Assembly (NCBI GenBank): GCA_963719525.1 | Contig: CAVRCG010000004.1 | Span: 861,579-925,578 of the forward strand | DNA from: an uncultured Cytophagales bacterium | GTDB taxonomy: Bacteria; Bacteroidota; Bacteroidia; Cytophagales; Bernardetiaceae | Direction: 5' to 3' | Length of the DNA stretch: 64,000 nt | Shown: positions 1-64,000 of the stretch, one piece after another | Layout: every line of letters starts with the position of its first letter | Numbering within the stretch: position 1 is the first letter of the stretch | Made by a program: the position numbers and the translations under genes | The notes under the pieces: generated by a model | Database searches by the model: none | What the model was told of the DNA's origin: nothing | Seen by the model: only the letters and a program-made list of their open reading frames with translations

Positions 1-426
1 ATTCAAAACAGGACTTCTATCTATGTTGAAATTTTCTAAAGTAAGTCGTATATTTTCTTTTTCTGTTTTTATAGATTTAGGAATAGACATAGTTCGCTCT
101 TCTTTTTTCCACAAACTAGTATTGCTTTTCGCTAGTCTATTTATAATTATGGTTTTGTCTTCTGATAAAATATAATAGAGAACATTAGTAGAAAATATCT
201 TTGATATAACTAATTCTTTTGCTCGTGGAAAAATATAAAGTGTCCTTTTAGATTCACAATGCCGTTTCCCCATATATTCCCAACTAGACTTCAAAAAAGC
301 AGATTTACAGTTTGCACAAAAAACAACTTCATCTCCTTCTACAATCAAATCTCCTGTAATTGGGTCTTTGCGCTGTTCGTTTAGAAAATGAATATGTTTT
401 TGATTTGAAATTTTATGAATGTGCAT
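1..426 (-). CDS. hypothetical protein, 3' part running off the window start
   Basis: ATG (reverse complement) at 424-426 and an open frame with no stop down to position 1 (begins MHIHKISNQKHIHFLNEQRKDPITGDLIVEGDEVVFCANCKSAF...). It is not in the ORF track because it is incomplete. No recognised domain. Confidence 0.4.
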   Translation of the reverse strand, partial: MHIHKISNQKHIHFLNEQRKDPITGDLIVEGDEVVFCANCKSAFLKSSWEYMGKRHCESKRTLYIFPRAKELVISKIFSTNVLYYILSEDKTIIINRLAKSNTSLWKKEERTMSIPKSIKTEKENIRLTLENFNIDRSPVLN

Positions 427-525
427 TTTTTTTGGTACTTCAGCATTCTCCACTTTATGAAGGATGAAGTTAGATTTTAGAATTAATGAAATTATGAACT
501 GAAAACTTTTGAAACTCTTTTGTTT

Positions 526-727
526 TTATTAACTGATGTTACGCAATTAAAAAGCTACCACCACCTTCTTCGTTTTTTTGTTTCTACTCTATTCTAAAAT
601 AGGAGTAATTTTAATAAAACGGAAAAGTAGATTCCTGTAAAAAGTAGTAGTTACTTTCCCACGAATAAATTCGTGGGTTTGGTCTAAACTTCTCTAAACT
701 TTGATGTTGCGTAACATCAGTTATTAA
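526..727. mobile_element. MITE-like element with 16-21 bp terminal inverted repeats and an internal hairpin
   Basis: Left arm TTATTAACTGATGTTACGCAA at 526-546 and right arm TTGCGTAACATCAGTTATTAA at 707-727 contain a perfect 16 bp inverted repeat (AACTGATGTTACGCAA). The internal perfect hairpin CCCACGAATAAATTCGTGGG is at 658-677. The element lies immediately 3' of truA. Confidence 0.4.
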
Positions 728-741
728 TAGAAAAGGTTTTT

Positions 742-1515
742 TTATAAAAAAATTTCTTTCGGATATTCTACATTTACCAAAAAAAGTCCATTTGAAGGAA
801 CAGAAAAGCCTGCTGATTTTCTATTTTTATCTAAAATAATTTTCTCAAAATCTTCTATTTCTATCTTTCCTTCTCCTACCAAAAAAAGAGAACCTATAAT
901 GGCACGAACCATTCCTCTCAAAAATCAATTTGCAGAAATAGTAAAACGCCAAAATTCAGTCTGACTATCCTTCTCTTTTGTCCAAATCGCTTTACTAATC
1001 TCACATTCAAAATTACTTACCTGCGTTTTTACCTTACTAAAAGATTCAAAATTTGTGTGATTTAATAAATATTCGGCTGCTTTGTTCATTTTCTCAAAAC
1101 GAGAGTCATCCAGACCCTTATTTTTTCTGTGAAAATGAGCGTGATTTATCAAAAATGGATTTTTTTCAAGAATTACATGATAATGATATATCCTTAAAAA
1201 AGCATCAAAACGAGCATGTGCAGTTTCTATAACTGGAATAACTTTTAAAATAGCAATTTGAGGAGGTAAAAAACTATTCATTCGATATTTTAAATCTTCT
1301 ACATTAATCTTAGTTGAAGTATCAAAATGCGCAAATTGTTTTTTGCAATGTACGCCTGTATCAGTTCTTCCACTTCCTGTAACAGGCGTTTGTGTTCTCA
1401 AAATTTTTGATAAACCATCTTCAATAATTGATTGAATAGTTTTTGGGGTATTATTTTGAGATTGCCAACCGTGGTAATTTGTGCCTTCGTAAGCTATTTC
1501 TAAAAAATGACGCAT
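742..1515 (-). pseudogene. truA: tRNA pseudouridine(38-40) synthase TruA, with an in-frame TGA at 925-927
   Basis: The 196 aa ORF matches the TruA N-terminal two-thirds. In the same frame after the TGA, translation continues [20 protein letters not shown]...EYPKEIFL to the stop at 742-744. Other TruA proteins have R at this position (ISANRFLRGMVR), so the interruption is a CGA-to-TGA nonsense change. Confidence 0.8.
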
Positions 1516-1767
1516 AAGATTGAGTAAGTTGTTGGTGTATTTGAAATACTAGAGTAATCACATCTAATTTAAGGTATTTTTGAATTAATTTTTATTTTTG
1601 TAGATGAACAATATTAACTTTTTGAAGAAATGGAAGACTATTGTATCACAGGTAGGTAAATCGCATCTACTTTGGACTTTTTTTGATTTCAAGCTGTAAA
1701 ATATTAAAATTTGACGTTTTATAAACAAAAATAGACTCTTAGGAAAGTAAAAACCGTCATATAATTA

Positions 1768-2064
1768 TGAATAAATTAAAACAATTTTCAAGTTTTGAAG
1801 AACTAAAAGCAGATGCAAAACCTGCAACAAATATGGAAGAAGCACTAAAAAGACACGAAGAATTTAAAGAAGCAATGATTTTTCTTAGAAGTAAAATAGT
1901 CATAAAACCAACCCTAAATCAAGATGAAAAGCAAAAAACAACGTAATAAAGAGAGAATTTTAAAAGAATTGAAAGAGGCTGTTTTAGAAGTAAAACAAGC
2001 TCGTAAAGAAGGTAGACAACTAAAAACTTTAGAGGATTTTTTGAAAGAACTTGAAAATGAGTAG
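1768..2064 (+). pseudogene. degenerate antitoxin-like gene, homolog of the 15779-16003 antitoxin, split by a frameshift in an A-run near 1935
   Basis: Two short overlapping frames, 1768-1947 (MNKLKQFSSFEELKADAKPA...) and 1923-2064 (MKSKKQRNKERILKELKEAVLEVKQARKEGRQLKTLEDFLKELENE). The C-terminus LKTLEDFLKEL resembles the C-terminus SLKDFLDEL of the antitoxin at 15779-16003. No toxin gene follows. Confidence 0.3.
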
Positions 2065-2096
2065 TTTCATTTGTAGGGAAAATGGCTTGCCTTTTC

Positions 2097-2709: not shown

Positions 2710-3741
2710 TCATCTTTTATACTTATAGGTCTTTGTTGATTTGTGTCCATTTATCTGACTATGAGAGTAGATTGATATTTCATTTAAATGTATTTTTCCT
2801 TTATAAATTACACTCAGTCCTTCCCTTCCTTTCCATCCAGTTTTAAAGAATATACTATCACTTTTGATGGAATAAGTGCCAGTATAGATGAAAGGACTTT
2901 GTTCATCTCTATTAAACCAGTTCTTAACTTTTTTTAAATTATCACTAGATGTAGTTGATATAACTGTTGAATCATCGTAAAACTTCAAATAATAATAATA
3001 TCCATCTCCAGCTTTATCTGTTTGATATAATCCTTTGGTTTTAATAGAAAAAGTAGTCTTAAGTACTCTTTCTTTTTTATTTGTATCTGTTTGAAGTATT
3101 TTTTCATTTTGTTCTGTAGGTGGAAAATTACTTTTTACCTTATTTTCAGCATTTTCTTTCAAATTAATATTACTATCTTCTTCACTTCTGTTTGCATTGA
3201 AAGTTTCTATACTATCTTTATTATTTGTCAATAACTTTTCATCTCTATTATTCCTATTCAAAGAATTTGCAAATATTATTACAAAAAGTACGCATAAACA
3301 CATTACCAATATGTATGCAAAGATAAGTTTAGTTTTACCTTCTTTACTTTTATTTACCTTTTGTTTTATTGTTTCTTCCCGTCTTTTCAAATCATTCTCT
3401 CTTTTAGTTTGCCTTTCATCAACTTCACTTTGTTTACGTTTTAACTCTTCCTCTCGTTTCTTTAACTCTTCCTCTTTTTGTTTACTATAATTATTATTTG
3501 GTTGATTATTATATTGCCTGTTTAAAAATTCTTTCAAACGTATATCATAGCTACTTTTCTTGCTTGGACTGCTAAGTATTTCGTAGGCTTCATTAATTGA
3601 TTTAGATTTTTTTTCAAAAAACTCTCTTTGTTGTGGATTTACGTCAGGGTGAAACTTTTTTACTAATGCTTTATATGCTGCCTTTATCTCATCAAAAGAA
3701 GCATTAGTTTCTAAGCCAAGTATATCATAGTAGTTTTTCAT
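2710..3741 (-). CDS. J-domain (DnaJ-like) membrane protein with a Lys/Glu-rich coiled coil, one TM helix and a C-terminal domain of unknown function
   Basis: The N-terminus YYDILGLETNASFDEIKAAYKALVKKFHPD carries the HPD J-domain signature. A hydrophobic segment LIFAYILVMCLCVLFVIIFA follows. Confidence 0.8.
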   Translation of the reverse strand: MKNYYDILGLETNASFDEIKAAYKALVKKFHPDVNPQQREFFEKKSKSINEAYEILSSPSKKSSYDIRLKEFLNRQYNNQPNNNYSKQKEEELKKREEELKRKQSEVDERQTKRENDLKRREETIKQKVNKSKEGKTKLIFAYILVMCLCVLFVIIFANSLNRNNRDEKLLTNNKDSIETFNANRSEEDSNINLKENAENKVKSNFPPTEQNEKILQTDTNKKERVLKTTFSIKTKGLYQTDKAGDGYYYYLKFYDDSTVISTTSSDNLKKVKNWFNRDEQSPFIYTGTYSIKSDSIFFKTGWKGREGLSVIYKGKIHLNEISIYSHSQINGHKSTKTYKYKR

Positions 3742-3900
3742 AGAATTTAATAATAATAATTACCTGCTAACTTCATTTGTAACAATACTTGAATCTATCA
3801 ATTTTATAAGTGTACAATTATATTATTTGTTATTGGTATATCCAAGTTTGTGAAAAGAGAAAATATAGTGTATAGTAAAATTTTAACAATGATACGAAAT

Positions 3901-4905
3901 TTAACCGTTCAATTTTGTATCTCTGTATATGACACTACCAAAGACTTGAAGCATTTTACCATAATCTGAATTTTGCTCTAAAGACTGTTTTAAGTTTTCT
4001 TGATTTATTTCTAATCCATTATCTATAAACGTATCATCGAATGTTTGAAATGAATTAAGTATATGAGGATTACATACAAATAAATTATTCTTTCTATATC
4101 CAATTATATAATGAGGAAATAATCCACCTGTTAATGTAAATTCCTTTTGCTTAGGGTAGTAATCACTAAAATATATTGGTAATCCTTTCAATAAAATAAA
4201 TTCACTAGATGTATGAATAATTTCAATAGAAGTCCCGAATCTCTCAAGAGGCTTAGGTAACCAGTAATATAATATAATTCCGTCTTTAGTTGAAAAATCT
4301 TCAGCTACTTTAAGTTCAGTAGACAACGAAACACAAAAAGAAAGTTCATTGTAGTTACCCATTTCTCCAATAGTATGCAGAAGTCTTATGTAGTAATTTT
4401 TAACCTTGAATTTATCTAAAAAATTAAATTTTCCAATTTTATTTATAAAATCATTTTGGTTCTCATTTCTACAAAAATATTCTTTGAATAAAGGATTTAA
4501 ATTTTTAAAATTTATGACAACTTCCTTCCGTTTTTTAGTTAAAACAGTCCTAATTTTTATAAAAATTTTTTTAAAAGCCTCATCTGATACATCTTGGATT
4601 AAATCTAAAAAGTCATTAGTTTCAATTTGTTTCTTGATGTTTTCTTTCAAATAGGATTTTGATTTTTCGCCAAAAGAGAATAAAAATCTCATTTTTCCAT
4701 TATCTTCTCCTTTTTTACTAATTTTTTTAATTCGTTTTTTTAATAAGTCTTCTAAAGTTCCTCTGTAAAATAATTGTATGTCATTATCAGTAATTGATTT
4801 ATTCAGCCAAATATTAAAATCTTTAGCTCTTTGCTGCTGATAATCATTTAATTCAATTAACTTATCATTATTACCGATAATTCTTAATTCAAGATTATTG
4901 AACAT
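3901..4905 (-). CDS. hypothetical protein (334 aa), ORFan-like, in an extremely AT-rich segment
   Basis: Long open frame with no domain I recognise. The DNA is visibly more AT-rich than the flanking icmF. Confidence 0.55.
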   Translation of the reverse strand: MFNNLELRIIGNNDKLIELNDYQQQRAKDFNIWLNKSITDNDIQLFYRGTLEDLLKKRIKKISKKGEDNGKMRFLFSFGEKSKSYLKENIKKQIETNDFLDLIQDVSDEAFKKIFIKIRTVLTKKRKEVVINFKNLNPLFKEYFCRNENQNDFINKIGKFNFLDKFKVKNYYIRLLHTIGEMGNYNELSFCVSLSTELKVAEDFSTKDGIILYYWLPKPLERFGTSIEIIHTSSEFILLKGLPIYFSDYYPKQKEFTLTGGLFPHYIIGYRKNNLFVCNPHILNSFQTFDDTFIDNGLEINQENLKQSLEQNSDYGKMLQVFGSVIYRDTKLNG

Positions 4906-4982
4906 TATTATTAGGTTTAAAATAAAAAATAAAAAACCTATAAGGTTTCCAAAAACCTTATAGGTTTGAATAAAATTAAAAC

Positions 4983-7900
4983 CTACATATTCCTCCTATA
5001 CTGCCCCCCAACTTCAAACAAAGCTCTAGTAATCTGTCCTAACGAACAGGTTTTAGTAGCTCTCATTAAGTGTTCAAACATATTTTCGTGTTTGATGGCT
5101 GCTTTTTGAAGGTCTTTGAGTATTTGCTGATTTTTTTGTTCGTCAAAAGAATGTAGCGACTTGAGCATATTTATTTGATACTCTTTTTCTTCTTCTGTCG
5201 AACGAATTACTTCGGCAGGAATAACGGTAGGCGAACCCTTCGAAGACAAAAATGTATTTACACCCACAATCGGATATTCGCCTGTGTGTTTTTGCATTTC
5301 GTAATACATACTTTCTTCCTGTATTTGTGTGCGCTGAAACTGTCTTTCCATCGCTCCCAAAACTCCACCACGCTCTGTAATTTGGTCAAAAATCTTCAAA
5401 ACAGCTTCTTCTACCAAATCAGTCAGTTCTTCAATAATAAACGAACCTTGCAACGGATTTTCATTTTTTGCTAATCCTAATTCTTTATTGATGATAAGCT
5501 GAATCGCAACAGCACGACGAACAGAATCTTCCGTTGGTGTCGTTATGGCTTCGTCGTAAGCGTTGGTATGCAGCGAGTTACAGTTGTCGTAAATGGCATA
5601 CAAGGCTTGTAGAGTAGTACGAATATCATTAAAATCAATTTCTTGTGCGTGAAGCGAACGCCCCGAAGTTTGGATATGATATTTTAGTTTTTGCGCTCTA
5701 TCGTTTGCTCCGTACTTGTTTTTCATCGCCTTTGCCCAAATACGACGAGCCACACGCCCAATAACAGAATATTCTGGGTCAATTCCATTCGAAAAAGAAA
5801 AACGAGAAATTCGGTGCAAAATCATTAATATCCATTCCTCTACTCAAATAATATTCGGCAAACGTAAAACCGTTACTCAATGTAAAGGCAAGTTGCGTAA
5901 TTGGATTTGCGCCTGCTTCTGCAATATGATAACCCGAAATAGAAACCGAATAGAAATTTTGAACGTGATGGTCAATAAAATACTGCTGAATATCTCCCAT
6001 GAGTTTTAGCGAAAATTCGGTACTAAAAATACACGTATTTTGCGCTTGGTCTTCCTTCAAAATATCAGCTTGAACCGTTCCACGTACTTGTGTGAGTGTT
6101 TTTGCTTTAATTTTATCATAAATTTCTTTATCCAAAACTTCATCGCCTGTTGCTCCTAAAAGCATCAACCCTAAACCGTTATTTCCTTCTGGCAAACCTC
6201 CATTATAAGTAGGACGAATTTTGCCTTCATATTTTTTCTTGACTTTTGCCTCAACTTCTTCCTCTAAACCGTTTTCTTTGATGTAAATTTCACATTGCTG
6301 ATCAACGGCTGCATTCATAAAAAAGGCACACACCGTAGCAGCAGGTCCAATTAATGGTCATTGAAACCGAAGTCGTTGGGTCAGCCAAATTAAAACCTGA
6401 ATAGAGTTTTTTTGCATCATCCAAACAACATACATTTACACCCGAATTACCCACTTTTCCATAAATATCTGGACGATAATCTGGGTCTTCTCCATACAAT
6501 GTTACCGAATCAAAAGCCGTCGAAAGTCGTGCAGCAGGCATTCCTTTTGAAAGATAATGAAAACGTCTGTTTGTGCGTTCGGGACCTCCTTCGCCTGCAA
6601 ACATACGAGTAGGGTCTTCGCCAGTACGCTTAAACGGAAAAACGCCAGCCGTAAATGGAAATTCTCCCGGTACATTTTCTTGTAAATTCCATTTCAAAAC
6701 ATCTCCCCACGCTTTGTATTTTGGTAGCGAAATTTTAGGAATTTTGGATTGAGAAAGAGAAACGGTATAAGTCTTTAAACTAAATTCTTTATTACGAACT
6801 TTATAAACAAAATCATCAGCTGTATAAGTAGCTACTTTTGCTTGCCAATCTTCAATTATTTTCCAGTTTGTACCTTCTAAAGTGAGTTTTATTTGTTCGA
6901 AAGTATCTTTCAAGCCATTTATAATAGAATCTTTCAGTTCTTTTTCTAGTTCTTCATTCTCTGAAATAGAATGAATAGAAAGTTCTAAACCGTATAATTT
7001 TTGTGCAATTTCGGCTTGGTCTTCTACATTTTTATCATAACGACGATTACTTTCACTAATTTCTGACAGATAACGAACTCTTGAAGGAGGAATAATATAC
7101 TGTTTTTCAGACGTAGAAGCCGATATTTTGAAAGTAGAATCAAATAATTTTGTAGGCGAATTTTCACTAACTTTATTAATTTGGTCAATCAAAGCACGAT
7201 ACAACGTATTCATTCCAACGTCATTAAACTGCGATGCAATCGTACCATAAACAGGAATTTCTGAATCTGGTGTATCCCACAAATTACGGTTTCTTTTGTA
7301 CTGTTTTTTGACATCACGAAGCGCATCTAAAGCACCACGTTTGTCAAATTTATTGAGTGCAATTACATCAGCAAAATCAATCATATCGATTTTTTCTAAC
7401 TGCGAAGCTGCACCATATTCTGGTGTCATAACGTATAAAGAAGCATCAGAATGGTCTGTAATGGCTGTATCAGATTGTCCAATTCCAGAAGTTTCAACGA
7501 TAATCAAATCAAATTCGGCTGCACGCAAAATATCAATCGCATCTTGAACGTATTTTGAAAGAGCTAAATTAGACTGACGAGTAGCCAAAGAACGCATATA
7601 AACACGGTCGTTTGTAATCGAATTCATACGAATACGGTCGCCTAAAAGTGCGCCACCAGTACGACGACGAGAAGGATCAACTGAAACAATGGCAATCGTT
7701 TTGTCTTCAAAATCCATCAAATAACGTCTTACAAGCTCATCAACAAGCGAAGATTTACCTGCACCACCTGTTCCTGTAATTCCCAAAACAGGAGCTACTT
7801 CTTCTGGAATAAGTGTTTTTATTTTCTTTATAATTTCCTTATTCTTTTCTGGATAATTTTCAACTGCCGAAATAATCCTGCCTATTGTCTTCGAATTTCT

Positions 7901-8395
7901 TTCTTTTATTGTTTCTACTTCGCTAATTTCTACATCGTGTCCTGTTGGAAAATCAGTTTGTTCAAGCAAATTATTTATCATTCCTTGAAGTCCCATTGAA
8001 CGACCGTCATCTGGATGATAAATTTTGGTAATGCCGTAATTATGCAGTTCTTCTATTTCAGAAGGCAAAATCACACCTCCACCACCACCAAAAAGTTTGA
8101 TATGTCCTGCACCTCGCTCTTTCAAAAGGTCGTGCATATATTTAAAATATTCTACGTGTCCACCTTGATACGAAGTAATGGCAATCGCTTGTGCATCTTC
8201 TTGAATGGCACAATTTACAATTTCTTCTACCGAACGGTTGTGTCCTAAATGAATCACTTCTGCACCTGAAGATTGAATAATTCGGCGCATTATATTTATA
8301 GCTGCATCGTGTCCATCAAAAAGTGCTGCTGCTGTAACGACACGCAGTTTGTTTTTTGATGTATAAGGCAATGGAATTGGAGGATTTGTACTCAT
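4983..8395 (-). pseudogene. icmF: fused isobutyryl-CoA mutase IcmF (B12-binding domain, MeaB-like GTPase and mutase substrate domain), interrupted by two single-base frameshifts
   Basis: Three consecutive minus-strand ORFs (6302-8395, 5779-6333, 4983-5825) together make one IcmF-like protein of about 1090 aa. B12-binding N-terminus, GTPase P-loop [12 protein letters not shown], mutase C-terminus. The breaks are an extra T near 6335 (TINW... versus expected TING...) and an extra T in a T-run near 5800 (FSFFFFEWN versus [12 protein letters not shown]). Confidence 0.85.
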
Positions 8396-8846
8396 GGTAT
8401 GTTTGTGTTGTATATATTTTTTTGCTTTTTGTAGAATTTTCTTTATGGTACGCTTCTCACTCTAAAGAGTGAGCTACATTTGATTGGCTATATTATTTCT
8501 CTTTTTTACAAAAATAGTAAGAAAAAGCCAGACTAAACGTACTGTCAAATAGTTGAGCAGTACAAATTTGTTAATTTACAGATTGTATTTACCATTAGTA
8601 ACGTCTATTTTCTCCAAAAATACAAGCCTGCCAAAGTAAAAACTAACTTTCTAAAAAATTATACTCTAAGAAATGAATCAACAAATTTGTACCTTGTAAC
8701 TACTTAAAAGAACGTTTTAACAAAAAGTTTTTGAAGATACATGCATATTCTAATTAGATTTATTCATCCTCCTCTTTTTACTCAGTTTAGTTTCACATAG
8801 TTTAGCAATATCTAAAAATATTGTGTTAAGACTATTGTGAATATTA

Positions 8847-8976
8847 AACATTATCACAGTTAATTTAGTACTGTTCATTTTTCCATAGTGACAAACCTGT
8901 CTCTATGGAAAAATAAGACTGTTTTACTTTTCTATAACAATTGATTAGTGGACCTATAGATAACTGTGATAACGTT
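8847..8976. mobile_element. MITE, copy 1, with terminal inverted repeats AACATTATCACAGTT / AACTGTGATAACGTT
   Basis: 15 bp terminal inverted repeats at 8847-8861 and 8962-8976 flank about 100 bp that contains the internal hairpin TTTTCCATAG...CTATGGAAAA. A second copy of about 88% identity lies in inverse orientation at 47463-47594. Confidence 0.5.
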
Positions 8977-9229
8977 TAATTTACGAAAAATAAATTTTGA
9001 CTTTCCTCTTAGAATAGGTTTTTAATACTTTTTTAACACAGCTCAAACCAAACTTATCATAAATATTTTAGACAAAATGATAAGAAATTCATTTTTAATC
9101 AAAAAATCGTTATTTTTGCAGTATCAAATCTATGAAAAATGATTCTTGCCTTTATTGGTGTTTTAGCGTAGCGACATCAACAAAACGTATATTCAGAATA
9201 CACATTCAAAATTTAAAATAAAATCAACT

Positions 9230-11095: not shown

Positions 11096-11135
11096 GATTT
11101 ATAATTGAAACGTAAACTCGTGATTAATCAATCTT

Positions 11136-11440: not shown

Positions 11441-12052
11441 CTACAAACCATTTTCCCTTTTCGTTTCGTCTATAATATGCTGCAAAGCTCCTAAAAGCAA
11501 ATCTAATTCATTTATCAAAAAACGCTTTTCATCTATTGTAATCTGATTATTTTCATATCTAATAAAACGCCATTCTACACCTGTTGTAGAACAACCATAA
11601 AGAACTTTTATAGGATTTCCTTCTAGTTCATTTAGTTTTTTTGCACCAATAAGTTAAGCCGAAACTTGTAGCGTCCCTTGTTCTAAATCTTGCTTTTTGG
11701 CTTCTGTAATACAGAAAATAGGAGTTAAGACAAAATCTTGAATCCTGCTAAACGAAAAAACAAAATCACATTCTCCTCGCAATCCCAAATCTGTACTTAC
11801 ATCTAAATTTGCACCCGAATAAATAGAAAAAGAATGTTTGTTTATTTCACTTAGTTCTGTCAAAACAGGACTTACAAGACGTTCAGAACGTGATTTTTCA
11901 CTCCCAAAACCCATTTGAGTAGATTTTTTTAGAGAAGCAACGAGCCATTCGGAAGCTGGAAGAGGAACAAGATTAGGAAATAAATTGGTAGCTCTAAACT
12001 TAATTTCAAACTTGTTTATTAAATCTAAATAGGTAAAATCGTTATATTCCAT
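11441..12052 (-). pseudogene. PD-(D/E)XK nuclease-like protein of the HsdR N-terminal-domain family, with an in-frame TAA at 11654-11656
   Basis: The 132 aa ORF ends at TAA, and the same frame continues LIGAKKLNELEGNPIKVLYGCSTTGVEWRFIRYENN... to the stop at 11441-11443. A D...ExK-like motif (GECDFVF...CITEAKK) is present. The TAA is probably CAA-to-TAA. Confidence 0.5.
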
Positions 12053-12190: not shown

Positions 12191-13918
12191 ATGCAACCCA
12201 AACGCTGGCTCTTCGAACCTTTACCTTCTAATGAACAAATTTCATTGCTTTCTAAGCAAATCAATGTTAGTACTATTCCTGCAACCTTACTCTTGCAGCG
12301 TGGAGTAAGTGATTTTGAAACTGCAAAAGATTTTTTTCGTCCTTCTCTTTCTCATCTGCATTCTCCTTCTTTGATGAAAGGAATGGAAAAAGCCGTAAAT
12401 CGTTTGAAAAATGCCATAGAAAATAAAGAAAAAATTTTAGTGTATGGAGATTATGATGTCGATGGAGTTACTTCGGTGGCTCTAATTTTTGGCTTTTTGA
12501 GAAAGATTTATCCTGATACAGAAGAGCAAAAAAATCTTTATTATTATATTCCAAACCGAAATACAGAAGGCTACGGAATTACAAAACAAGGGTTAGAATT
12601 TGCAAAAAAAGAGGAAGTAAAACTGATTATCTGTTTAGATTGTGGCGTAAAGGCAAATGAGCAAATTCAGCAAGCCAAAGATTGGGGAATAGATTTTATA
12701 GTTTGCGACCACCATTTGCCAGACGAAGAATTACCTGCTAGTTTTGCAATGCTCAATCCAAAACAAAAAGGCTGTCAATATCCATTTAAAGACCTTTCAG
12801 CGTGTGCGATTGGCTACAAATTTTTACAAGGATTTTGTGAAAAAACAGAAAATTCTATACGAGATGTAGATTATTATTTGGATTTGGTAGCGTTGAGTAT
12901 TGCTGCCGATTTAGTTCCGATAGTAGGAGAAAATAGGACTTTGAGTTCTTTTGGATTAGAAAAAATAAATAATGAGCCACTTCTAGGAGTGAAAGCATTA
13001 CTGAATTTGATAAATGGATATGGAAAAAAAATAGGTGTTCGTGAGATTGTTTTTTCACTTGCTCCTCGTTTGAATGCAGCAGGACGAATTGGAGATGCTT
13101 ATAATTCTTTGGAACTACTTTTGGCTTCATCGGATAAAGAAGCGAATAAATTAGCTAGAGAATTAAATCAAAAAAATGATGAGCGTCGTGATATAGAGCG
13201 TAAAATGATGGAGGAAATAGATGAAATTTTGAAAAAATCAGATCCCAAACGCAAGACAAACGTACTTTTTAGTAGAAATTGGCATAAGGGATTAGTTGGA
13301 ATTGCAGCAGCTAAATGTGTAGAGAAAACCTATCGTCCGACCGTAATTCTGACAAATTCGGATTCTGATAATGGAGAACTGGCTGTCGGTTCGGCTCGTT
13401 CGATTTATGATTTTGATATTTATAAAGCTGTGGAGAGTTGTTCGGACTTATTGACACAATTTGGAGGACACAAATTTGCTTCTGGAATGTCTATGCCTAT
13501 CGAAAACGTAGCACAATTTCAAGAGCGTTTTGAAGCTGCTGTAAAGGGTAATTTGGAAAAGGAACAACTTGTTCAGCCTGTTCGTGTAGATATGGAAATT
13601 GATTTCTCACAGATTACTCAAAAAATGTTTGCTATCATAAAACAAATGTCGCCTTTTGGTCCTCAAAATATGCGACCTGTTTTTGTGGCTCGTAACGTTC
13701 AACTTCTTTCTCCCAAAATTATAAAAGAAACACATTTGAGAGTACAAGTCAGACAAGGAACTTCTCTTTTTTCGGCTATTTCGTTTGGAAAGGCTAATTT
13801 TTTTAATCAAATAAATTCAAAATCTAGGTATGATATTGCTTTTTTGATAAGTGAAAATTTTTTTAGGGATAAAAGTTATTTGCAACTTGAAATTAGAGAT
13901 ATTTTGAAGGTGGAATAA
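12191..13918 (+). CDS. recJ: single-stranded-DNA-specific exonuclease RecJ
   Basis: DHH phosphoesterase motifs (VYGDYDVDGVTS, DHH at CDHHLP) and a DHHA1 domain. About 575 aa. Confidence 0.9.
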   Translation: MQPKRWLFEPLPSNEQISLLSKQINVSTIPATLLLQRGVSDFETAKDFFRPSLSHLHSPSLMKGMEKAVNRLKNAIENKEKILVYGDYDVDGVTSVALIFGFLRKIYPDTEEQKNLYYYIPNRNTEGYGITKQGLEFAKKEEVKLIICLDCGVKANEQIQQAKDWGIDFIVCDHHLPDEELPASFAMLNPKQKGCQYPFKDLSACAIGYKFLQGFCEKTENSIRDVDYYLDLVALSIAADLVPIVGENRTLSSFGLEKINNEPLLGVKALLNLINGYGKKIGVREIVFSLAPRLNAAGRIGDAYNSLELLLASSDKEANKLARELNQKNDERRDIERKMMEEIDEILKKSDPKRKTNVLFSRNWHKGLVGIAAAKCVEKTYRPTVILTNSDSDNGELAVGSARSIYDFDIYKAVESCSDLLTQFGGHKFASGMSMPIENVAQFQERFEAAVKGNLEKEQLVQPVRVDMEIDFSQITQKMFAIIKQMSPFGPQNMRPVFVARNVQLLSPKIIKETHLRVQVRQGTSLFSAISFGKANFFNQINSKSRYDIAFLISENFFRDKSYLQLEIRDILKVE

Positions 13919-14198
13919 TTTTTTACGACAATAAATTCAAACTTAAATTGATTCGATTACCTTTAATCGGAAACAATGTTATAAAAATTACTTAGAATGC
14001 ATTTAAATTTTTATTTATAGATTTTTTTTGAATACTTTCAATATAATTTTTCTACTATAGAATAAAGAGAATTTTTAGAAGGAGTGTTTCTTGTTAAACA
14101 AAAGAGTAAATCAATATACCTTCTAAGCAGTAATGTTGCTTCCTGCTTCAAAATACGTAAGATTACCAAATTTGGATTTTGGTAAGATGCTATGAATC

Positions 14199-15371
14199 TC
14201 AAAACAATCGATTATACATTTTTATCCAACGCTCTGGCATTTCTCCTCTATTAGCTTGTTGATAATCATTATAACTACAAGGAATAATCGATGGACGTTG
14301 ATACGGGTTTTCTTCATTATCTTCTTCAAAATGTGGTGCAGGAACTTCTAACCACCATTTATCGGTCAATTTACTTTTATAAAAAACCATCATAAAGTCA
14401 GTTCGTCCTCCCATTGGAACAAGATATTTTATGTAAAACGGACTTCCAAAATCATATTCAGCTTGGCGATTATAAAATCCTTCTACAAAATACCAAATCA
14501 TTGTCGAAATAATACTTGCTGTATGTCCGTATAAATCTAAGTCAGGATTATATTCGTAAAATCCTATTGAGGTCATCTGTACATTATTTCCTGCATACCA
14601 ACAAATTCGTGTCGCTTCTTCTGCTGAAAGTCCAAAAGGTTGAGCGAGTTTGTTTGCTGCTGCATCGGCTGCACGAATAGCACTCAAATCAAAACTAAGT
14701 AAATCGGCAGTTCTTACAAGTGGTTCTATTTCTTCTGGTTTATCCCTAATTTTCCCTACTCCAACAACATCAAAATTTAGTTTTTGATATAATTTTATAA
14801 AATCTAACGGAATCAAATATTCTTGACTAGCCAAATGAGTAATATTAAATAAATAATTGGGTTGTAATTTTAATATTTTATCTATAAAACTATCTGCTGG
14901 GAAATTACTATTTACATCTAAATCAATCTTGGCATCAACACATAAAAGCGAAAGCATTTTGTCCAATGGTTTATAGGCTTCATATTGTGCCAACGTCAAA
15001 TTGTGGCTTCCTCCAATAATTATTGGCAAAACATTTTTCTGTAAAAGTCTATAACACACTTCACTCAAACGCTCTTTTGTCTGACTTTCATCTTCTGTTA
15101 ATCTCAAATTTCCTAAATCTATAATGTTATATTTGTGCGCTCGTCCTTTCTGCAAACGATATAATTTTTGACGAACAGCATCGGCAGCATTAAGCATCGA
15201 TTTGTTTTCAGAGCCATTTTTGTCATCAACTCCAATGATTGCGATTTCGGCATCTTGCCACGAAGTATCAGCCGAAAAATTACCAGTCAAGATTTCAAAC
15301 CATGTGTTTTTATGGTTTTGTCCATCAAAATTGGATAAGGAAGGTTTGTTGAAGAATAGTTCTAGGTTCAT
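14199..15371 (-). CDS. arginase/agmatinase/formiminoglutamase family protein (ureohydrolase superfamily)
   Basis: 390 aa with manganese-ligand motifs (IGVDDKNG, IIGGSHN, DLS). Confidence 0.7.
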   Translation of the reverse strand: MNLELFFNKPSLSNFDGQNHKNTWFEILTGNFSADTSWQDAEIAIIGVDDKNGSENKSMLNAADAVRQKLYRLQKGRAHKYNIIDLGNLRLTEDESQTKERLSEVCYRLLQKNVLPIIIGGSHNLTLAQYEAYKPLDKMLSLLCVDAKIDLDVNSNFPADSFIDKILKLQPNYLFNITHLASQEYLIPLDFIKLYQKLNFDVVGVGKIRDKPEEIEPLVRTADLLSFDLSAIRAADAAANKLAQPFGLSAEEATRICWYAGNNVQMTSIGFYEYNPDLDLYGHTASIISTMIWYFVEGFYNRQAEYDFGSPFYIKYLVPMGGRTDFMMVFYKSKLTDKWWLEVPAPHFEEDNEENPYQRPSIIPCSYNDYQQANRGEMPERWIKMYNRLF

Positions 15372-15396: not shown

Positions 15397-15789
15397 TTAG
15401 TTTTGCTCTTTATCTTCTCCATTAAGTTTGTCGTTTATTCCCAAAATAACGTCCTTTAAATAGCTTTCTGATATAGTTTCCATTTCTGATTTGTCATAAA
15501 TAGCAACTAAGAAAATAGTAGTTTCATCTTCTAAATCTTTTTCAATTACATCTACTAAAACTTCGACCACGTAAGTAACAACACGCAAACCTCCTCTTTT
15601 TCCTTTGCCTTTACTTTTTACGGCTAAACGAATTTTGTACGTATTTTCAGAAATTAAAGTGCCTATTTTTGGATTATTGATAAGTTGTTGTTGTAATTCA
15701 GCTAATTCCGATTTGAGAGAAATGTATTTTTTCAAAAGTTTCTTAGCATCTCTCTTAAATTCATCGATAAGAGTTATTTTATAGTTCAT
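15397..15789 (-). CDS. type II toxin, RelE/ParE superfamily (HigB-like killer protein)
   Basis: 130 aa with KGKGKRGGLRVVTYVV...IFLVAIYDKSEMETI, typical of addiction-module killer proteins. It overlaps the upstream antitoxin gene by 11 nt. Confidence 0.7.
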   Translation of the reverse strand: MNYKITLIDEFKRDAKKLLKKYISLKSELAELQQQLINNPKIGTLISENTYKIRLAVKSKGKGKRGGLRVVTYVVEVLVDVIEKDLEDETTIFLVAIYDKSEMETISESYLKDVILGINDKLNGEDKEQN

Positions 15790-16003
15790 CTAAAAAATCT
15801 TTTAATGAAGTTCCTTTTTTTTCTCCTCTTTGTATTTGTCGTACTTCTCTGAAAGCTCTTTCTAGTTTGTCTTTCATTAATAGCTTATTTTTCATGTCTT
15901 CAATTTCTTGTACAAAATTTTCCCATTCTTTTAAGCTAAGTTGTACAACGGTTTCTTTTCCTTCTTTATCTTCTATATAATGTGGTTGTGGAATTTTTAT
16001 CAT
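15779..16003 (-). CDS. cognate antitoxin (74 aa)
   Basis: Small protein upstream of and overlapping the toxin gene, with the C-terminal motif GTSLKDFLDEL. Confidence 0.6.
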   Translation of the reverse strand: MIKIPQPHYIEDKEGKETVVQLSLKEWENFVQEIEDMKNKLLMKDKLERAFREVRQIQRGEKKGTSLKDFLDEL

Positions 16004-16824
16004 TTCGTTTTTTATTTAAAGTGTTTTTCTGAATAAACGCATTATCTCCAAAGTTAGTTTTTATTTGAAATGAATTGGAAATCTAATCCTAAAAATTATA
16101 TCACAAGTTAGAAAATATTTCCACAACAAGTTTGGTTTATAAAAAAATAATTCTTACCTTTGCAACTCGTTAAAGAAAGCCATAGGAAAAAGCCTAAGCT
16201 ACTGCGTCTAGTTAAATGTTTGAATAATGATAGTAAATTGTAAGTAAATTATTACTAAGTAAAATTACTACTTCATTAAACAGACAGAAAAATTTAACTA
16301 TTGAAATATAGAAAACTTTGATTTAAAAGTACATATTTAAAAATTCCGAAATACTTCTGACTTCTAATTTCAGACTTCTGAATTTATTATTGTACCTCTT
16401 TTCTGTTCACTACACAAGAAGTCTTTGTTGAGTTAGCTTGCGTTGTGAAATTTAATTTAATTATATTTTTATTAATACTGATTAAATTATTTTTCAAATC
16501 ACAAAACAAACCGTTCAACGCCTCCCACAAAAGCTTCTCACTTAGCACAAACCTCAAAGTCATCTAGGTTTCGTCTTTTTGACTCTATCAACACTTGATA
16601 AAATATCGTATTTGTTTAATTATTTAGAACTATAAATTTTACTCTCATAAAGTTCTGCATGTATATGTAGTTTTTATTGATTGCTCTTTATTTTCTTATC
16701 TAAATTATTACGTTCAAATAAATTTGTTTATCCGAATTGATACATATCTGACCGTCTGCTTATTCGTTTTTTTGAGTTGCTTTCTACAATTATTTACAAT
16801 ATATAATTTATTATAGTTTTTAGT

Positions 16825-18222
16825 ATGGAAAAGACAATAGAAAAAAAATCAAAGAAAGTAACTGAATCTACACAATCAACAGAGGTAACTTTGAAATTTA
16901 CAGACATGAATCTGTCTGATGAAGTAAAACGTGCCGTTGAAGCAATGGGATTTGAATCTCCATCACCAATTCAAGAACAAGCAATTCCTTTTTTATTAGA
17001 AGGTAGAGATGTAATCGGACAAGCACAAACAGGAACAGGAAAAACGGCTGCATTTGGTATTCCTCTTATTGAAAGAATTATCAAAGCAAACGAGAATAGC
17101 GAATTTGACAGAAATTCAAGATTACCGAAAGGAATTATTTTGTGTCCTACTCGTGAACTTGCCGTTCAGGTAGCAGGAGAATTAGAAAAATTAGCAAAAT
17201 ACCGTAAAGATATTTTCGTAACGGCTGTTTATGGTGGCGAATCTATTGAAAAACAAATTCGTAACCTTAAAAGAGGTGTTCAAATCGTAGTAGGAACTCC
17301 AGGACGTACCATTGACCATATAAAAAGAGGAACTTTGAAGCTAGAAGAAATTACAAATGTAATTTTGGATGAAGCCGATGAGATGCTTAATATGGGTTTC
17401 AAAGAAGATATTGAGCTTATTTTAGAAGAAATCACGACAGAACACCAAACTGTTTTGTTCTCGGCTACAATGCCTAAACCGATTCTTCAAATTGCTAAAA
17501 AATACCAAAACAATCCAGAAATTGTAAAGGTAATCAGTAAAGTATTGACAAGCGATAACATTGAGCAATCGTTTTTACCAATTAATCCAAATTACAAAAC
17601 AGAGGTTTTAGTTCGTTTGTTGGCGTATAATGGTTGGGAATCAATGCTTATTTTCTGTAACACAAAACAGAGAACTGACGAAGTAGCAGAAAAATTAATC
17701 CAAAAAGGATATTCAGCAGAAGCATTGCACGGAGATTTGGCACAACACCAACGTAATTTGGTAATGAATAAATTCCGTCACGGTCGTGTTCAAGTTTTGG
17801 TAGCGACAGATGTTGCAGCTCGTGGAATTGACGTGGATAATGTAGAAGCAGTTATTAATTATGATGTGCCTTTAGATCCAGAGTATTATGTTCACCGTAT
17901 TGGTCGTACTGGTCGTGCTGGTAATACAGGTGTTTCGATTACATTTATTTCTGGTCGTAGAGAAGTTTATCGTCTGAATGATATAGAGCGTTATTCTAAA
18001 TCCAAAATTTCTCAAGGAACAATTCCTACTCAAGATGAAGTTTTGGCTAAGAAACAAGTTCGTTTTATGGAAAACTTAAAAGCAACTATCAATGATGAGA
18101 AAAAAGCTGAAGAATTAGAAGGCTTTACAGCTCTTATTGAAATGTTGGAAATAGAAGGAATTACTGCAAAACAAGTAGCTGCTGCCGTTTTGAGCCTTCA
18201 AATTTCGAAACAAACCTACTGA
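16825..18222 (+). CDS. deaD: DEAD-box ATP-dependent RNA helicase (DeaD/CsdA-like) core, truncated by a frameshift just before its C-terminal extension
   Basis: Q motif, AQTGTGKT (motif I), DEAD, SAT and HRIGRTGRAG motifs. The stop at 18220-18222 is followed in the +1 frame by the expected C-terminal domains. Confidence 0.9.
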   Translation: MEKTIEKKSKKVTESTQSTEVTLKFTDMNLSDEVKRAVEAMGFESPSPIQEQAIPFLLEGRDVIGQAQTGTGKTAAFGIPLIERIIKANENSEFDRNSRLPKGIILCPTRELAVQVAGELEKLAKYRKDIFVTAVYGGESIEKQIRNLKRGVQIVVGTPGRTIDHIKRGTLKLEEITNVILDEADEMLNMGFKEDIELILEEITTEHQTVLFSATMPKPILQIAKKYQNNPEIVKVISKVLTSDNIEQSFLPINPNYKTEVLVRLLAYNGWESMLIFCNTKQRTDEVAEKLIQKGYSAEALHGDLAQHQRNLVMNKFRHGRVQVLVATDVAARGIDVDNVEAVINYDVPLDPEYYVHRIGRTGRAGNTGVSITFISGRREVYRLNDIERYSKSKISQGTIPTQDEVLAKKQVRFMENLKATINDEKKAEELEGFTALIEMLEIEGITAKQVAAAVLSLQISKQTY

Positions 18223-18688
18223 CAAACTTTCAGAAGCTGAAATCTGGGATACTAGAGATAGAAGAAGAGATGGACGTGGTGGAAACGACCGTAGAGGTGG
18301 TGGACGTGATAGAGGTGGAAGAAACGACCATAGAGGTGGGCGCAATGATAGAGGAAGTCGTAATTCTAGTTCTTCTCGTCGTGATGATAGAGGTGGAAGC
18401 CGTGACCGTAATGATAGAACAAGCCGTCCTTCTTACAAAGATCGTGGCGACCGTGCTGATATGGTTCGTTTGCGTATCGATTTGGGTGCAACTGAAAATG
18501 TGCGTAAAGGCGATATCTTAGGAGCAATTGCAGGAGAAACAGGAATGCGTGGCGACAAAATCGGTTCTATTCGTGTAAACGAGAGAGAATCTTTCGTAGA
18601 AGTACCACAGTCTGACGTTGATAATATCATCAGAGTAATGAACAAGTCTAAAATAAAAGGTAAAAAAGTTGAGTTTGAAAAAGCTTAA
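18191..18688 (+). pseudogene. deaD: out-of-frame C-terminal part of DeaD: RGG/RD-rich linker plus DbpA-type RNA-binding domain
   Basis: The +1 frame reads KPTDKLSEAEIWDTRDRRRDGRGGNDRRGGGRDRGG...MVRLRIDLGATENVRKGDILGAIAGETGMRGDKIGSIRVNERESFVEVP..., which is the canonical DeaD C-terminus. The shift is within CAAATTTCGAAACAAACC near 18205-18215. Confidence 0.75.
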
Positions 18689-29400: not shown

Positions 29401-29866
29401 AATGAATATTCTGACAGAAGGCGAATATGAAATTACACTTCGTACAATGAAATATTTCCATTCTAAACACGAGCTTTATTTATATGATTCTTTGACAGAT
29501 TCGCTTCATAATTTGCGTGCAGAAGGCGATTATAAGTTTGCAGCTACAAAAGGCTACGAAGTAAAACGTTTCGTTCTTTTATTCAAAACAGATGCAAATC
29601 AAGACTTCTTTATAGATGAGAAAGTGGTAGTTTATCCAAATCCAACTCCAGATGAATTTTCATACAGTTTGAAGACAGATAGAGAAGGAGACTATACAAT
29701 TCGTCTTTTTGATGCAACTGGTAGAGTACTATTTGAAGAAAGCAAAACAAAAGAAGGTGCATTTTTAGAAGGAACATTAAGTTTAGAAAAACACGCTGCT
29801 GGACTTTATTTGCTGCAAGTATCTGATGCTCAAAAAACAGTTACAGTACGTGTTGTGAAAGAATAA
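23478..29866 (+). CDS. giant T9SS-secreted adhesin of about 2100 aa (Calx-beta, Ig-like repeats, T9SS type A C-terminal sorting domain), present as three ORF fragments joined by two single-base frameshifts
   Basis: The fragments are 23478-25418, 25348-27609 and 27743-29866. Junction 1 near 25345 splits a Calx-beta domain (VDDALVEGTETGYL | TINTPSQGVLLGTTTTQNVVITDNDSEAEI). Junction 2 is in a T-run near 27500, after which the +1 frame reads an Ig-like domain (TITPTTYCTGSTITIPFTTGG...). The C-terminus VVVYPNPTPDEFSYSL...LYLLQVSDAQKTVTVRVVKE is a type A (Por_Secre_tail) sorting domain. Confidence 0.75.
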
Positions 29867-31297: not shown

Positions 31298-31402
31298 TTT
31301 TTTATACAATAAGAAAATTAGAAGAGTAAAAGCTATGTAGGTATAGAAAAACAATCATTTTCTTTTCCATTCTCTAATTCCTATTCCCTAATTCTAAGAA
31401 AT

Positions 31403-35240: not shown

Positions 35241-35666
35241 ATGAAAATGAAAAATCCCCCTTTATTTTGCAGCTTGATTTTTTTCATGGTTGCTTTTTTT
35301 GTGTCTTCTAATCTTGCACTAGCGCAAAACGAAAGAATAGAAGACTTGCCAAAGGCTTATATTACAAACGAACTTTATGTAATGCTTGATGGAGATAATG
35401 CTCCACAAAATGCAAAAGTATTTGAAGCTGATATTCTAGAACTACACTTGGCTACAAAAGAACAAGCCGATCGTTTTTTTGGCTTTTTTAATGATGCTAA
35501 TGTAACTTTTGAAACAAATATTATTACTCAAAAAACGATTGTTACTCTAATCCCTGATGTAGAAAAGCAAAATTGGACAGTAAAGCAATGGGCAATGTAC
35601 CTAAAAAATAAAATATCTGCCCAGCGAGAGCAATTCGGAACTTATATTGATTTTACCAAAAAATAA
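35241..35666 (+). CDS. hypothetical secreted protein (141 aa)
   Basis: Signal peptide LIFFMVAFFVSSNLALAQ. It ends 12 nt before the start of the giant gene and may be co-transcribed with it. Confidence 0.5.
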   Translation: MKMKNPPLFCSLIFFMVAFFVSSNLALAQNERIEDLPKAYITNELYVMLDGDNAPQNAKVFEADILELHLATKEQADRFFGFFNDANVTFETNIITQKTIVTLIPDVEKQNWTVKQWAMYLKNKISAQREQFGTYIDFTKK

Positions 35667-44549: not shown

Positions 44550-44708
44550 ACGTTTCATAAATTAGAGCTAATCAAAAAGCCTATTCAGTCATAAAGATTG
44601 GATAGGCTTTTTTTTGTATCTTCGTTAAAAATAAAAGGATAAAAGTTGAGAGAATAAACTTGAAACGTTAAGAAATGAATATGTCTAAAAAAGTAAAAAA
44701 TTTGACTT

Positions 44709-44975
44709 AGTGATAATTTGATTTGTAATTGCAGTTACTTCTAAAATCTAAAATCTAAATTAGTTTCTCTTGTGTGCCTTTGTGTTCCTTAATTTGCCTT
44801 AGTGGTAATTTGATTTGTAATTGCAGTTACTTCTAAAATCTAAAATCTAAATTGGTTTTTCTTGTGTGCCTTTGTGTTCCTTAATTTGCCTTAGTGGTAA
44901 TTTGTAATTGTAATTTCATTTGTAATTGAAATTACTTCTAACTTCTAACTTCTAACTTCTGAATTCTAAATTTAT
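44709..44975. repeat. intergenic tandem repeat of about 92 bp, 2.5 copies, ending in an ACTTCTA microsatellite
   Basis: Copies at 44709-44800 and 44801-44893, with a diverged partial third copy to about 44975 ((ACTTCTA)x4). Related ACTTCTGA/TTCTAA-rich motifs occur at 16340-16393 and 18693-18760. Confidence 0.75.
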
Positions 44976-45699: not shown

Positions 45700-46335
45700 A
45701 TGGTTGTTTCAGTTTCTTTAGCTATTTTAGTTATCACAATTATTATCAGTGTTTTGGGATTTAATAATCCAGAACTACAAGGAAAATTAATACATAATCC
45801 TTTTCTAGCAAACAAAAATAAAGAATATTATCGTCTTCTTACGTCTGGATTTATTCATAACGGTTGGTCGCATTTGGGTTTTAATATGCTTACTTTCTTC
45901 TTTTTTGGAGGAGTTGTAGAACAGGTTTACATCAAAAATTATGGTTTTGGTTTGGGTTCTGTTATCTTTTTGGGTGTTTATTTGGTTGCCATTATTATTT
46001 CCGATTTGCCTTCTTTTTTTAAGTACAAAGATATGCCTGCGTATAGTTCATTAGGAGCTTCTGGTGGGGTTTCGGCTATCGTTTTTGCTTCTATTTTGTT
46101 TCAGCCTACCAATGATTTGTTTTTATTATTAATTCCGATTCCAATTCCTGCTTTCGTTTTAGGAGCTTTGTATGTCATTTATTCTTATTATCAAAGCAAA
46201 AACTCAACGGATAACATCAATCATTCGGCTCACTTGTACGGTGCTGTGGCTGGTTTTGTGATTAGTGCGATACTTGTTCCGAGTGCAGTTTCCGATTTCT
46301 TTATTCAGCTTTCTAAGTATCGTTTGCCTTTTTAA
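45700..46335 (+). CDS. rhomboid family intramembrane serine protease
   Basis: 211 aa polytopic protein with the catalytic GASGGV (Gly-x-Ser-Gly) and downstream His (HSAHLYGAVAG) motifs. Confidence 0.8.
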   Translation: MVVSVSLAILVITIIISVLGFNNPELQGKLIHNPFLANKNKEYYRLLTSGFIHNGWSHLGFNMLTFFFFGGVVEQVYIKNYGFGLGSVIFLGVYLVAIIISDLPSFFKYKDMPAYSSLGASGGVSAIVFASILFQPTNDLFLLLIPIPIPAFVLGALYVIYSYYQSKNSTDNINHSAHLYGAVAGFVISAILVPSAVSDFFIQLSKYRLPF

Positions 46336-46341
46336 TCTATA

Positions 46342-46866: not shown

Positions 46867-46927
46867 ATTTTGAATATAAGTTTTTTCGTTCTTTGTTAAT
46901 TACGTTTTATCAACAATAAATGTTATT

Positions 46928-47215
46928 ATGCTAGATTTTTATGTAATAGAAGAACATCAAACTACACCAAAATCGCCAAAAGGTTTAGCATTTGTGAAAG
47001 GTCTGGAATCAGATATAGTTGGAAGATTAAAGCAGAAAAACATAATTCCAAATCAATACGATTATTATTCAGACTTTAGATGGAGTTTGGAAATTATAGA
47101 ACGGTTAATTTTGAAGTTAGATGAAAATACTACTGATACTGACCAACTTATTCTGTATGATTTACTTTTTAAAGCTACATCGCAAAAGATGGGTTTGATC
47201 GCTTTTTGTGATTGA
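46928..47215 (+). CDS. hypothetical protein (95 aa) inside the AT-rich insert
   Basis: Complete ORF. No recognised domain. Confidence 0.3.
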   Translation: MLDFYVIEEHQTTPKSPKGLAFVKGLESDIVGRLKQKNIIPNQYDYYSDFRWSLEIIERLILKLDENTTDTDQLILYDLLFKATSQKMGLIAFCD

Positions 47216-47418
47216 TTAATTATTATTTCATCAAATTAAGTGGAAGTCGTTTTATAAATTATTTGGGCATTATTCTTCCTAACTCTACGATTTATTTACA
47301 CGTAACATTACCTGTATATATTCATTTCATAACAAAACCCTTCTTTATTAAAAATAAATGTTATTCTGCCAGTTTCATATTCAATAAAGATAGTATTACT
47401 CGTTTTCAAGCAGTTACT

Positions 47419-47463
47419 AATTTCTTTATTCAGCTCTCCAAATATCGTTTGCCGTTTAAATAA
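47419..47463 (+). repeat. duplicated 3' end of the rhomboid gene (direct repeat of 46294-46335), candidate att-type site
   Basis: AATTTCTTTATTCAGCTCTCCAAATATCGTTTGCCGTTTAAATAA against GATTTCTTTATTCAGCTTTCTAAGTATCGTTTGCCTTTTTAA. Both encode FFIQLSKYRLPF with only synonymous differences. Confidence 0.6.
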
Positions 47464-47594
47464 ACGTTATCACGGTTATTTATAGATCTAATAATCAATT
47501 AGTTGTAGAAAAGCAAAACAGTCTTATTTTTCCATAGCGATAGGTTTGCAAGCTATGGAAAAATGAACAGTACTAAATTAACTGTGATAACGTT
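47463..47594. mobile_element. MITE, copy 2, inverse orientation relative to copy 1
   Basis: Terminal inverted repeats AACGTTATCACGGTT (47463-47477) and AACTGTGATAACGTT (47580-47594). The internal sequence is about 88% identical to 8862-8961, including the TTTTCCATAG...CTATGGAAAA hairpin. Confidence 0.5.
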
Positions 47595-47734
47595 TAATAA
47601 AAATAAATTAATTTTTCTTCTCTTTTGTTTAACATAAGAAGCAAAATCTAGTTATAGAATTTACTAAGTTAGATTTTATCTTTTTAGTAAACTCACATTT
47701 TTTAAACTCTACTTTTTTATCTTCTAACTTTATC

Positions 47735-57567: not shown

Positions 57568-57598
57568 GTTATTTAATAATTTTTAAAAAAAATAAGAT

Positions 57599-58405: not shown

Positions 58406-58418
58406 TTTTATAGGTAAT

Positions 58419-63415: not shown

Positions 63416-63459
63416 TATTTCTTAACAGAATTAGTATAAACTTTTCGCTTTACACAAAA

Positions 63460-63493
63460 ACCCTTATTTCTTTATTGAAGTAAGGGTTTTTTT
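63460..63493 (+). terminator. rho-independent terminator of rpsA
   Basis: CCCTTATTTC-TTTATT-GAAGTAAGGG, a 10 bp stem with one G-U pair, followed by TTTTTTT. Confidence 0.75.
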
Positions 63494-63510
63494 GTGTCTT
63501 GGAATTTCTT

Positions 63511-63540
63511 GGTAGGGAAAATGGCTTGCCTTTTCCTAAA
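63511..63540. repeat. 28 bp exact repeat TAGGGAAAATGGCTTGCCTTTTCCTAAA, also present at 2073-2100
   Basis: Identical copies at 2073-2100 and 63513-63540. Each forms a GGAAAA...TTTTCC hairpin and sits in a 3' intergenic position. Confidence 0.7.
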
Positions 63541-63589
63541 TGTATGGATTTATAAACATATCTTGCCTTCTTTGATGTCTTATCAACGA

Positions 63590-63650
63590 CCTCTAATAAT
63601 CCTTGCCGTTGTTGGTGTCTCACCAACAACTCAACGACTTCCAATAATCA
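63590..63650. repeat. REP-like palindromic element (TCAACGAC...GTTGTTGGTG-TCTC-ACCAACAAC...TCAACGAC)
   Basis: 9 bp perfect stem GTTGTTGGT/ACCAACAAC flanked by direct TCAACGAC repeats. It belongs to the same CAACGAC/GTTGACGG family as 11328, 29886 and 33737. Confidence 0.45.
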
Positions 63651-64000
63651 ATTTATTTTTATTTTAGTCTTTAACTTTTTTTAATGTATGAAAAATAAAT
63701 AAATTATTATTCGCTAATAACTACTCTAAACAGAATAATATTTTGTCTAATTAATTTTAGCAGAATAATATTTTTCACTAAACAGGGGGTTGCATATCGA
63801 TTTAGCTGTTATGATTTATTGTGATTTTGATTTTAATGGAAAAGTTAATTTAACATAACAAAAACTAAATTTAAAATTAAATACAATAGAATTAAAATTC
63901 TGTAAAATATAATTTTGATTTATTGAATAATAAGTAGATATAATTTTGGGTTGCACGTTTTTTAGTTAAATAGTTTGTCTATCGAAAGCAGTATTTGAAG

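Follow-up and report, generated by a model that had tools for sequence, protein, structure and literature searches.

Long-read assemblies of environmental genomes may carry one-base errors that are easily mistaken for gene inactivation. Long-read consensus indels have been shown to fragment gene calls below approximately 40x coverage (PMC9262707), and the nanopore-only metagenome-assembled genomes (MAGs) of Microflora Danica (MFD), which passed a single Medaka round, display error signatures at lower coverage and lower GC content (PMC12313526). Here a 64-kb stretch of DNA from an uncultured Cytophagales bacterium (contig CAVRCG010000004.1; hereafter the window, to whose 64,000 nucleotides all coordinates refer unless a relative is named) is compared with these described cases. 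Six of its approximately 44 genes (14%) are interrupted by nine point lesions, and it is proposed, with a probability of roughly 0.8, that all nine are uncorrected long-read consensus errors in an assembly made without short-read polishing. An earlier interpretation, made from the letters of the window alone (the sequence-only reading), had counted at least nine conserved genes as interrupted; nine is the number of confirmed lesions, while the genes that carry them are six, and one of these, an adhesin gene, is not widely conserved.

The closest relatives of the window, which has a GC content of 32–33%, are MAGs and isolates of the Bernardetia/Flexibacter group (Bernardetiaceae, Cytophagales), and its GatA protein is 94% identical to those of three MAGs. 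The tRNA scan of the 64-kb window found no tRNA gene and the Rfam scan of the window gave no match. The proteins of the window, fragments of broken genes included, are recorded from one 3,796,523-bp contig only (in NCBI and in the European Nucleotide Archive, ENA, where they have no protein accessions); a single contig of several megabases from an unannotated MAG points to a long-read assembly. Five loci recur in the comparisons below. Three of them, L082, L084 and L087, are contigs of ENA assembly ERZ25039505, in which contigs are named in the Flye manner (contig_N): L082 (contig_15093) and L084 (contig_15094) are sister contigs that are 97% identical to each other, and L087 (contig_18598, 739 kb) is syntenic with the window. 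The fourth, L083, is a short-read scaffold that shares about 20 kb of synteny with the window and in which all genes concerned are intact, and the fifth, L003, is a locus of an MFD nanopore MAG.

The lesions comprise six insertions of one base, one deletion of one base and two nonsense codons produced by C-to-T changes. Nine one-base edits restore full-length open reading frames (ORFs) in all six genes, and the repaired products match their orthologues wherever close orthologues exist, the adhesin having one distant homologue only. The sequence-only reading had proposed a comparison with a sister strain; when the relatives were consulted, every lesion with a comparator turned out to be private to this assembly, the exception being the second adhesin site, at which there is no comparable relative.

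Both nonsense codons lie on the minus strand, and both were correctly described by the sequence-only reading as C-to-T changes, as the comparison with relatives demonstrates. The truA gene (742–1515, minus strand, 257 codons) contains an in-frame TGA at 925–927 (codon 197), after which the frame is open to the natural stop; arginine occupies this position, without exception, in each of the 12 relatives, and the nearest encodes it as CGT. The other stop, a TAA at 11654–11656 where L003 has CAA, interrupts a conserved hypothetical gene of 203 codons (11441–12052, minus strand), labelled HsdR-N-like by the sequence-only reading, the product of which has no Pfam or NCBIfam match. The icmF gene, encoding fused isobutyryl-CoA mutase (4983–8395, minus strand, 1136 codons when repaired), is distributed over three ORFs by two insertions, i.e., an extra T in AAT-T-GG at 6349–6350 and the extension of a T4 run to T5 at 5792–5796. 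Alignment with the intact genes of L082 (95.2% DNA identity) and L084 (96.4%) shows exactly two one-base gaps within the gene, and the Pfam profile MM_CoA_mutase is divided among three successive ORFs of the minus strand, each in another frame (profile positions 22–135, 150–251 and 249–511). Repaired IcmF has 1136 aa, exactly the length of P0146; its identity is 98% with P0022 and P0146 and 95% with the proteins of two isolates, B. litoralis DSM 6794 and Bernardetia sp. ABR2-2B.

The three remaining genes are located on the plus strand. In deaD (16825–18688, 620 codons when repaired) an A is inserted at 18208–18210 (AA to AAA), so that the site reads TCGAAACAAACC where the relatives have S-N-K-P-T-D; as a result, the RNA-binding DbpA domain is in another frame than the DEAD and Helicase_C domains (Pfam). 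Bernardetia sp. OM2101 has an intact DeaD. The gene of a surface protein or adhesin sorted by the type IX secretion system (T9SS; 23478–29866) appears as three overlapping ORFs in different frames owing to two insertions. At the first site (25341–25342) an extra G gives ACAGGCT against AC-TGCT in L083, and at the second (27499–27503) an extra T extends T4 to T5, this lesion being recognized from ORF continuity alone at a position that no relative covers. The repaired adhesin ORF has 2128 codons and ends in a C-terminal T9SS sorting domain, and the best homologue of its product aligns to 36% of the query with 69% identity. The last gene (30919–31329) encodes a membrane protein and follows an exosortase gene. 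Comparison with L083 and L087 reveals in it an extra A at 31060 (GTC-A-CTA, no run) and a shortening of T8 to T7 at 31284–31290, and its repaired product has approximately 111–136 aa. The sequence-only reading had rightly regarded this partner gene as broken; its second lesion is added here, and the label xrtF is replaced, as the exosortase (30375–30893) scores best against XrtX (NF046081; 184 bits, cut-off 170) rather than XrtF (TIGR04128; 93 bits, cut-off 90). The broken partner itself matches the XrtX-associated membrane protein family weakly (19 bits, cut-off 75). A small ORF upstream of the exosortase (30063–30227) carries a PID-CTERM sorting domain.

The sequence context of the lesions was described earlier as mostly one-base indels in homopolymers, of which the first half stands, since seven of the nine are one-base indels, and the second does not. 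Only three of the seven indels fall in runs of at least 4 bases (with pre-lesion lengths of 4, 4 and 8), and the other four are at runs of 0, 1, 1 and 2. Runs of at least 4 bases make up 12% of coding bases, the enrichment of indels there being mild at most, and of the 181 coding runs of at least 6 bases in the window one carries an indel. Homopolymer length spectra revealed no difference between the window and its short-read and long-read relatives. A methylation-like motif common to both C-to-T sites was considered and rejected, as the truA site would lie in ATCGAT and the site of the 203-codon gene in GCTCAAC.

As to their distribution, all nine lesions lie within 1–31.3 kb, which would have p ~0.0014 in a post hoc test if lesions were uniform over the coding sequence, and two of them, in the exosortase partner gene, are 225 bp apart. 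When neighbouring ORFs on the same strand were scanned pair by pair over the whole window, no further lesion candidates emerged. In the part from 31.3 to 64 kb, where coding sequence amounts to approximately 27 kb and two of the genes measure 8.9 and 4.0 kb, there is no lesion and domain coverage is complete; this uneven distribution is suspected to stem from local coverage or from strain mixing.

The comparison of related assemblies may be regarded as the most telling result. In L087 a histidine-kinase gene (12446–14279 of that contig) carries nine private lesions in 1.8 kb, namely five one-base insertions (mostly outside runs), three small deletions and one TGA, all of them absent from the window and from L083. 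The nonsynonymous to synonymous changes of this gene number 84:155, against 123:156 in the intact gene of L083, so there is no excess; an old pseudogene is unlikely, since nine lesions would imply a large excess of substitutions that is not seen. In L082 a one-base insertion splits an ABC transporter gene (3280–5068) that is intact in the sister contig L084 (3096–4883). L003 has an in-frame TAA of its own at codon 52 of the 203-codon gene, where the window has GAA, so that one small gene has acquired two independent stops. A high lesion density in the L003 locus was also considered and rejected, as the ORFs that look split there belong to separate genes and one stop only is found. The short-read relative L083 has no lesion in 27 kb, and IcmF, TruA and DeaD of the isolates are full-length. 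Relatives of the long-read type bear lesions of their own, and the short-read relative bears none; private, clustered one-base lesions thus track the type of assembly and not the lineage.

How could such errors be produced? Low or uneven coverage, or cross-mapping of reads from co-occurring close strains, would disturb the consensus or its polishing; the consensus or polishing step would then retain or lose a base, or read C as T, and gene callers would subsequently divide one gene into several ORFs. Local consensus failure of this kind would suit both the clustering of the lesions in 1–31.3 kb and the pair that is 225 bp apart. We infer the sequencing technology of the contig, this mechanism of error and a lack of read support for the lesions. 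The sequence-only reading had named a homopolymer-error-prone chemistry as one of its alternatives; its idea of an artefact is retained, and the mechanism it invoked fits three of the seven indels.

Several findings weigh against consensus error. With three of seven indels in runs of at least 4 bases and six of seven being insertions, the spectrum is unlike the classic nanopore deletions in long homopolymers. Since some 5% of random base changes generate a stop, two nonsense codons would require approximately 40 erroneous substitutions over the 64 kb, more than the indel count leads one to expect, or else a non-random cause. Where the assembly can be checked it is accurate, as two Logan contigs (run ERR12040027) match the window at 100% over 2,643 bp; neither of them spans a lesion. 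The repaired proteins were sought as exact sequences in a collection of 15 billion proteins by eight queries (TruA with the stop repaired to R, W or G, the 203-aa protein, two versions of the exosortase partner, DeaD and IcmF) and none was present, i.e., no intact allele of the strain was found there; exact look-up of the post-lesion truA and deaD ORFs found none either. Finally, two features speak at the same time for genuine decay: three of the six genes are hit twice, as is frequent in true pseudogenes, and related isolates have larger contigs (4.9–5.9 Mb) than the one of 3.8 Mb examined here, which could fit a reduced genome, provided that this contig represents all of it.

Could the lesions nevertheless be real and very recent, in a lineage newly placed under relaxed selection by a bottleneck or host restriction, or in one with a mutator history? 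This is unlikely, although the two points just given, together with the fact that both stops are C-to-T transitions, lend it some weight. Evidence against it comes from the substitutions in the broken genes. On its private branch icmF of the window has acquired 8 nonsynonymous changes, all conservative, and 47 synonymous ones, against 6:44 and 19:61 in two intact relatives, and beyond the first frameshift there is only one of these eight replacements. Downstream of its TAA the 203-codon gene differs from L003 by 14 synonymous and 2 nonsynonymous changes. These two genes, the only ones tested in this way, are under normal purifying selection with no trace of relaxation. The icmF rate leads to the estimate that the lesions, if real, are younger than approximately 5–8% of the private branch and struck six genes at once, so a burst within that interval is allowed. 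Further observations are hard to reconcile with decay: the three genes hit twice are otherwise undegraded, the lesions are absent from relatives that are 95–98% identical, housekeeping genes such as deaD and truA are affected while the adjoining 32 kb is lesion-free, and long-read relatives have similar lesions in other genes, none being present in the 27 kb of L083 or in IcmF, TruA and DeaD of the isolates. Mismatch-repair deficiency concentrates indels in the longest mononucleotide runs, and here such a concentration is not seen, a single indel having occurred among the 181 coding runs of at least 6 bases. Among the Pfam matches of ORFs in the 64-kb window there is no insertion sequence (IS) element or transposase, the only mobile-looking sequence being a two-copy MITE-like repeat of 140 nt. 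The mutator or relaxed-selection history suggested by the sequence-only reading is therefore not upheld, there being no concentration in long runs, no nonsynonymous excess in icmF and no IS element in the window. Somewhat less probable still is the more specific form of this idea, that a real burst in a free-living member of the Bernardetiaceae with a reduced genome of approximately 3.8 Mb inactivated housekeeping, metabolic and surface genes before other signs of decay appeared.

Two other explanations were weighed. The lesions might be real alleles present in a part of the population and joined in a chimeric consensus of co-existing strains. Close strains do co-occur, given that sister contigs of 97% identity, at least two of them, are found together with further relatives in ERZ25039505, and several of the insertions look as if the two alleles of a synonymous third-position variant had been written one after the other (in deaD TCG plus A, where L083 has TCA). 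The allele of a relative fits this double reading at one of five sites checked, so that it is kept as speculation; moreover, frameshift alleles of deaD, truA and icmF should be strongly selected against and hence rare. In practice this explanation overlaps with artefact, and as a separate cause it is quite improbable. The interruptions might also be functional, as programmed frameshifts, reassigned stops or phase variation, and one lesion does lie in a T8 tract of a membrane-protein gene, but this is very hard to believe. At each site the alignable orthologues are in frame with sense codons, leaving no conserved slippery site, and no motif is common to the lesion sites. The truA TGA replaces an invariant Arg and the TAA of the 203-codon gene a Gln, yet TAA, TGA and TAG all end intact genes of the window (19, 6 and 6 times, respectively).

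The finding serves best as a data-quality flag, and the six split genes are to be read as whole. If the lesions are consensus errors, annotation should treat these genes as intact, and pseudogene counts, metabolic reconstruction and completeness estimates of this MAG would be biased. Since most of the lesions are one-base insertions outside long homopolymers, accompanied by C-to-T stops, and are clustered locally, a correction focused on homopolymers would miss most of them. If they were real, the window would show a free-living lineage at an unusually early stage of genome decay, at the very first step of genome reduction.

The window contains several further features. The giant surface-protein gene (35679–44549, plus strand, 2956 codons, 8.9 kb) is intact, in agreement with the sequence-only reading. 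The 141-codon ORF upstream of it (35241–35666) closes with a stop, and an identical 141-aa product is recorded from Logan. Directly downstream of the giant gene, an intergenic tandem duplication with a 92-nt unit (96% identical) occupies 44699–44882. An interrupted antitoxin remnant had been proposed around position 1935; there, two small ORFs of 59 and 46 codons (1767–1946 and 1924–2064, plus strand) overlap around an A6 run (1933–1938), and no lesion is present, for the copy of the pair in L082, which is 86% identical, has the same A6 run and the same overlapping layout. The 46-codon ORF is rich in Lys and Glu, L082 (at 16080–16810) possesses in addition to the pair a solo paralogue of the 59-codon ORF, and the pair has no family match. 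On the minus strand at 15397–16015, the stop of a 78-codon ORF with a weak RelB-like match and the ATG of a 130-codon ORF overlap, a layout that resembles that of toxin-antitoxin systems; the pair is absent at the corresponding position in L083 and L087.

Repeated sequences were also noticed. An intergenic repeat of approximately 140 nt with 17-nt terminal inverted repeats AAACRTTATCACAGTTA occurs at 8842–8981 and, inverted, at 47458–47599, with a third copy in the relative L001 (4938–5096), and looks like a miniature inverted-repeat transposable element (MITE). Direct repeats of 79–85% identity (46285–46336 and 47410–47461; 46906–46948 and 47344–47386) join the 3′ end of a rhomboid gene and the start of a 95-codon ORF to an 83-codon ORF (47212–47463), which may reflect a partial duplication.

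The window can finally be set against the known systems in which comparable lesions occur. Early genome decay, as in Sodalis glossinidius, Shigella and Mycobacterium leprae, is similar in its many broken genes, double lesions and mixture of frameshifts and nonsense codons; the window differs in having no IS expansion, no raised ratio of nonsynonymous to synonymous substitution rates and no shared lesions, and in that housekeeping genes are affected and the lesions are confined to half of its length. The spectra of mismatch-repair mutators are alike in C-to-T stops and one-base indels and unlike in that the window has a single indel at a run of at least 6 bases. From the consensus errors of long-read assemblies of the nanopore Flye/Medaka type, which are revealed by length ratios of the IDEEL type (PMC9262707; PMC12313526; PMC12007338), the window deviates by its two substitutions and by a majority of insertions at runs of 0–2 bases. 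It resembles them in single-base indels that split genes, in the privacy of the lesions to one assembly, in the low GC content, in the multi-megabase environmental contig and in the presence of similar lesions, each its own, in relatives assembled in the same way.

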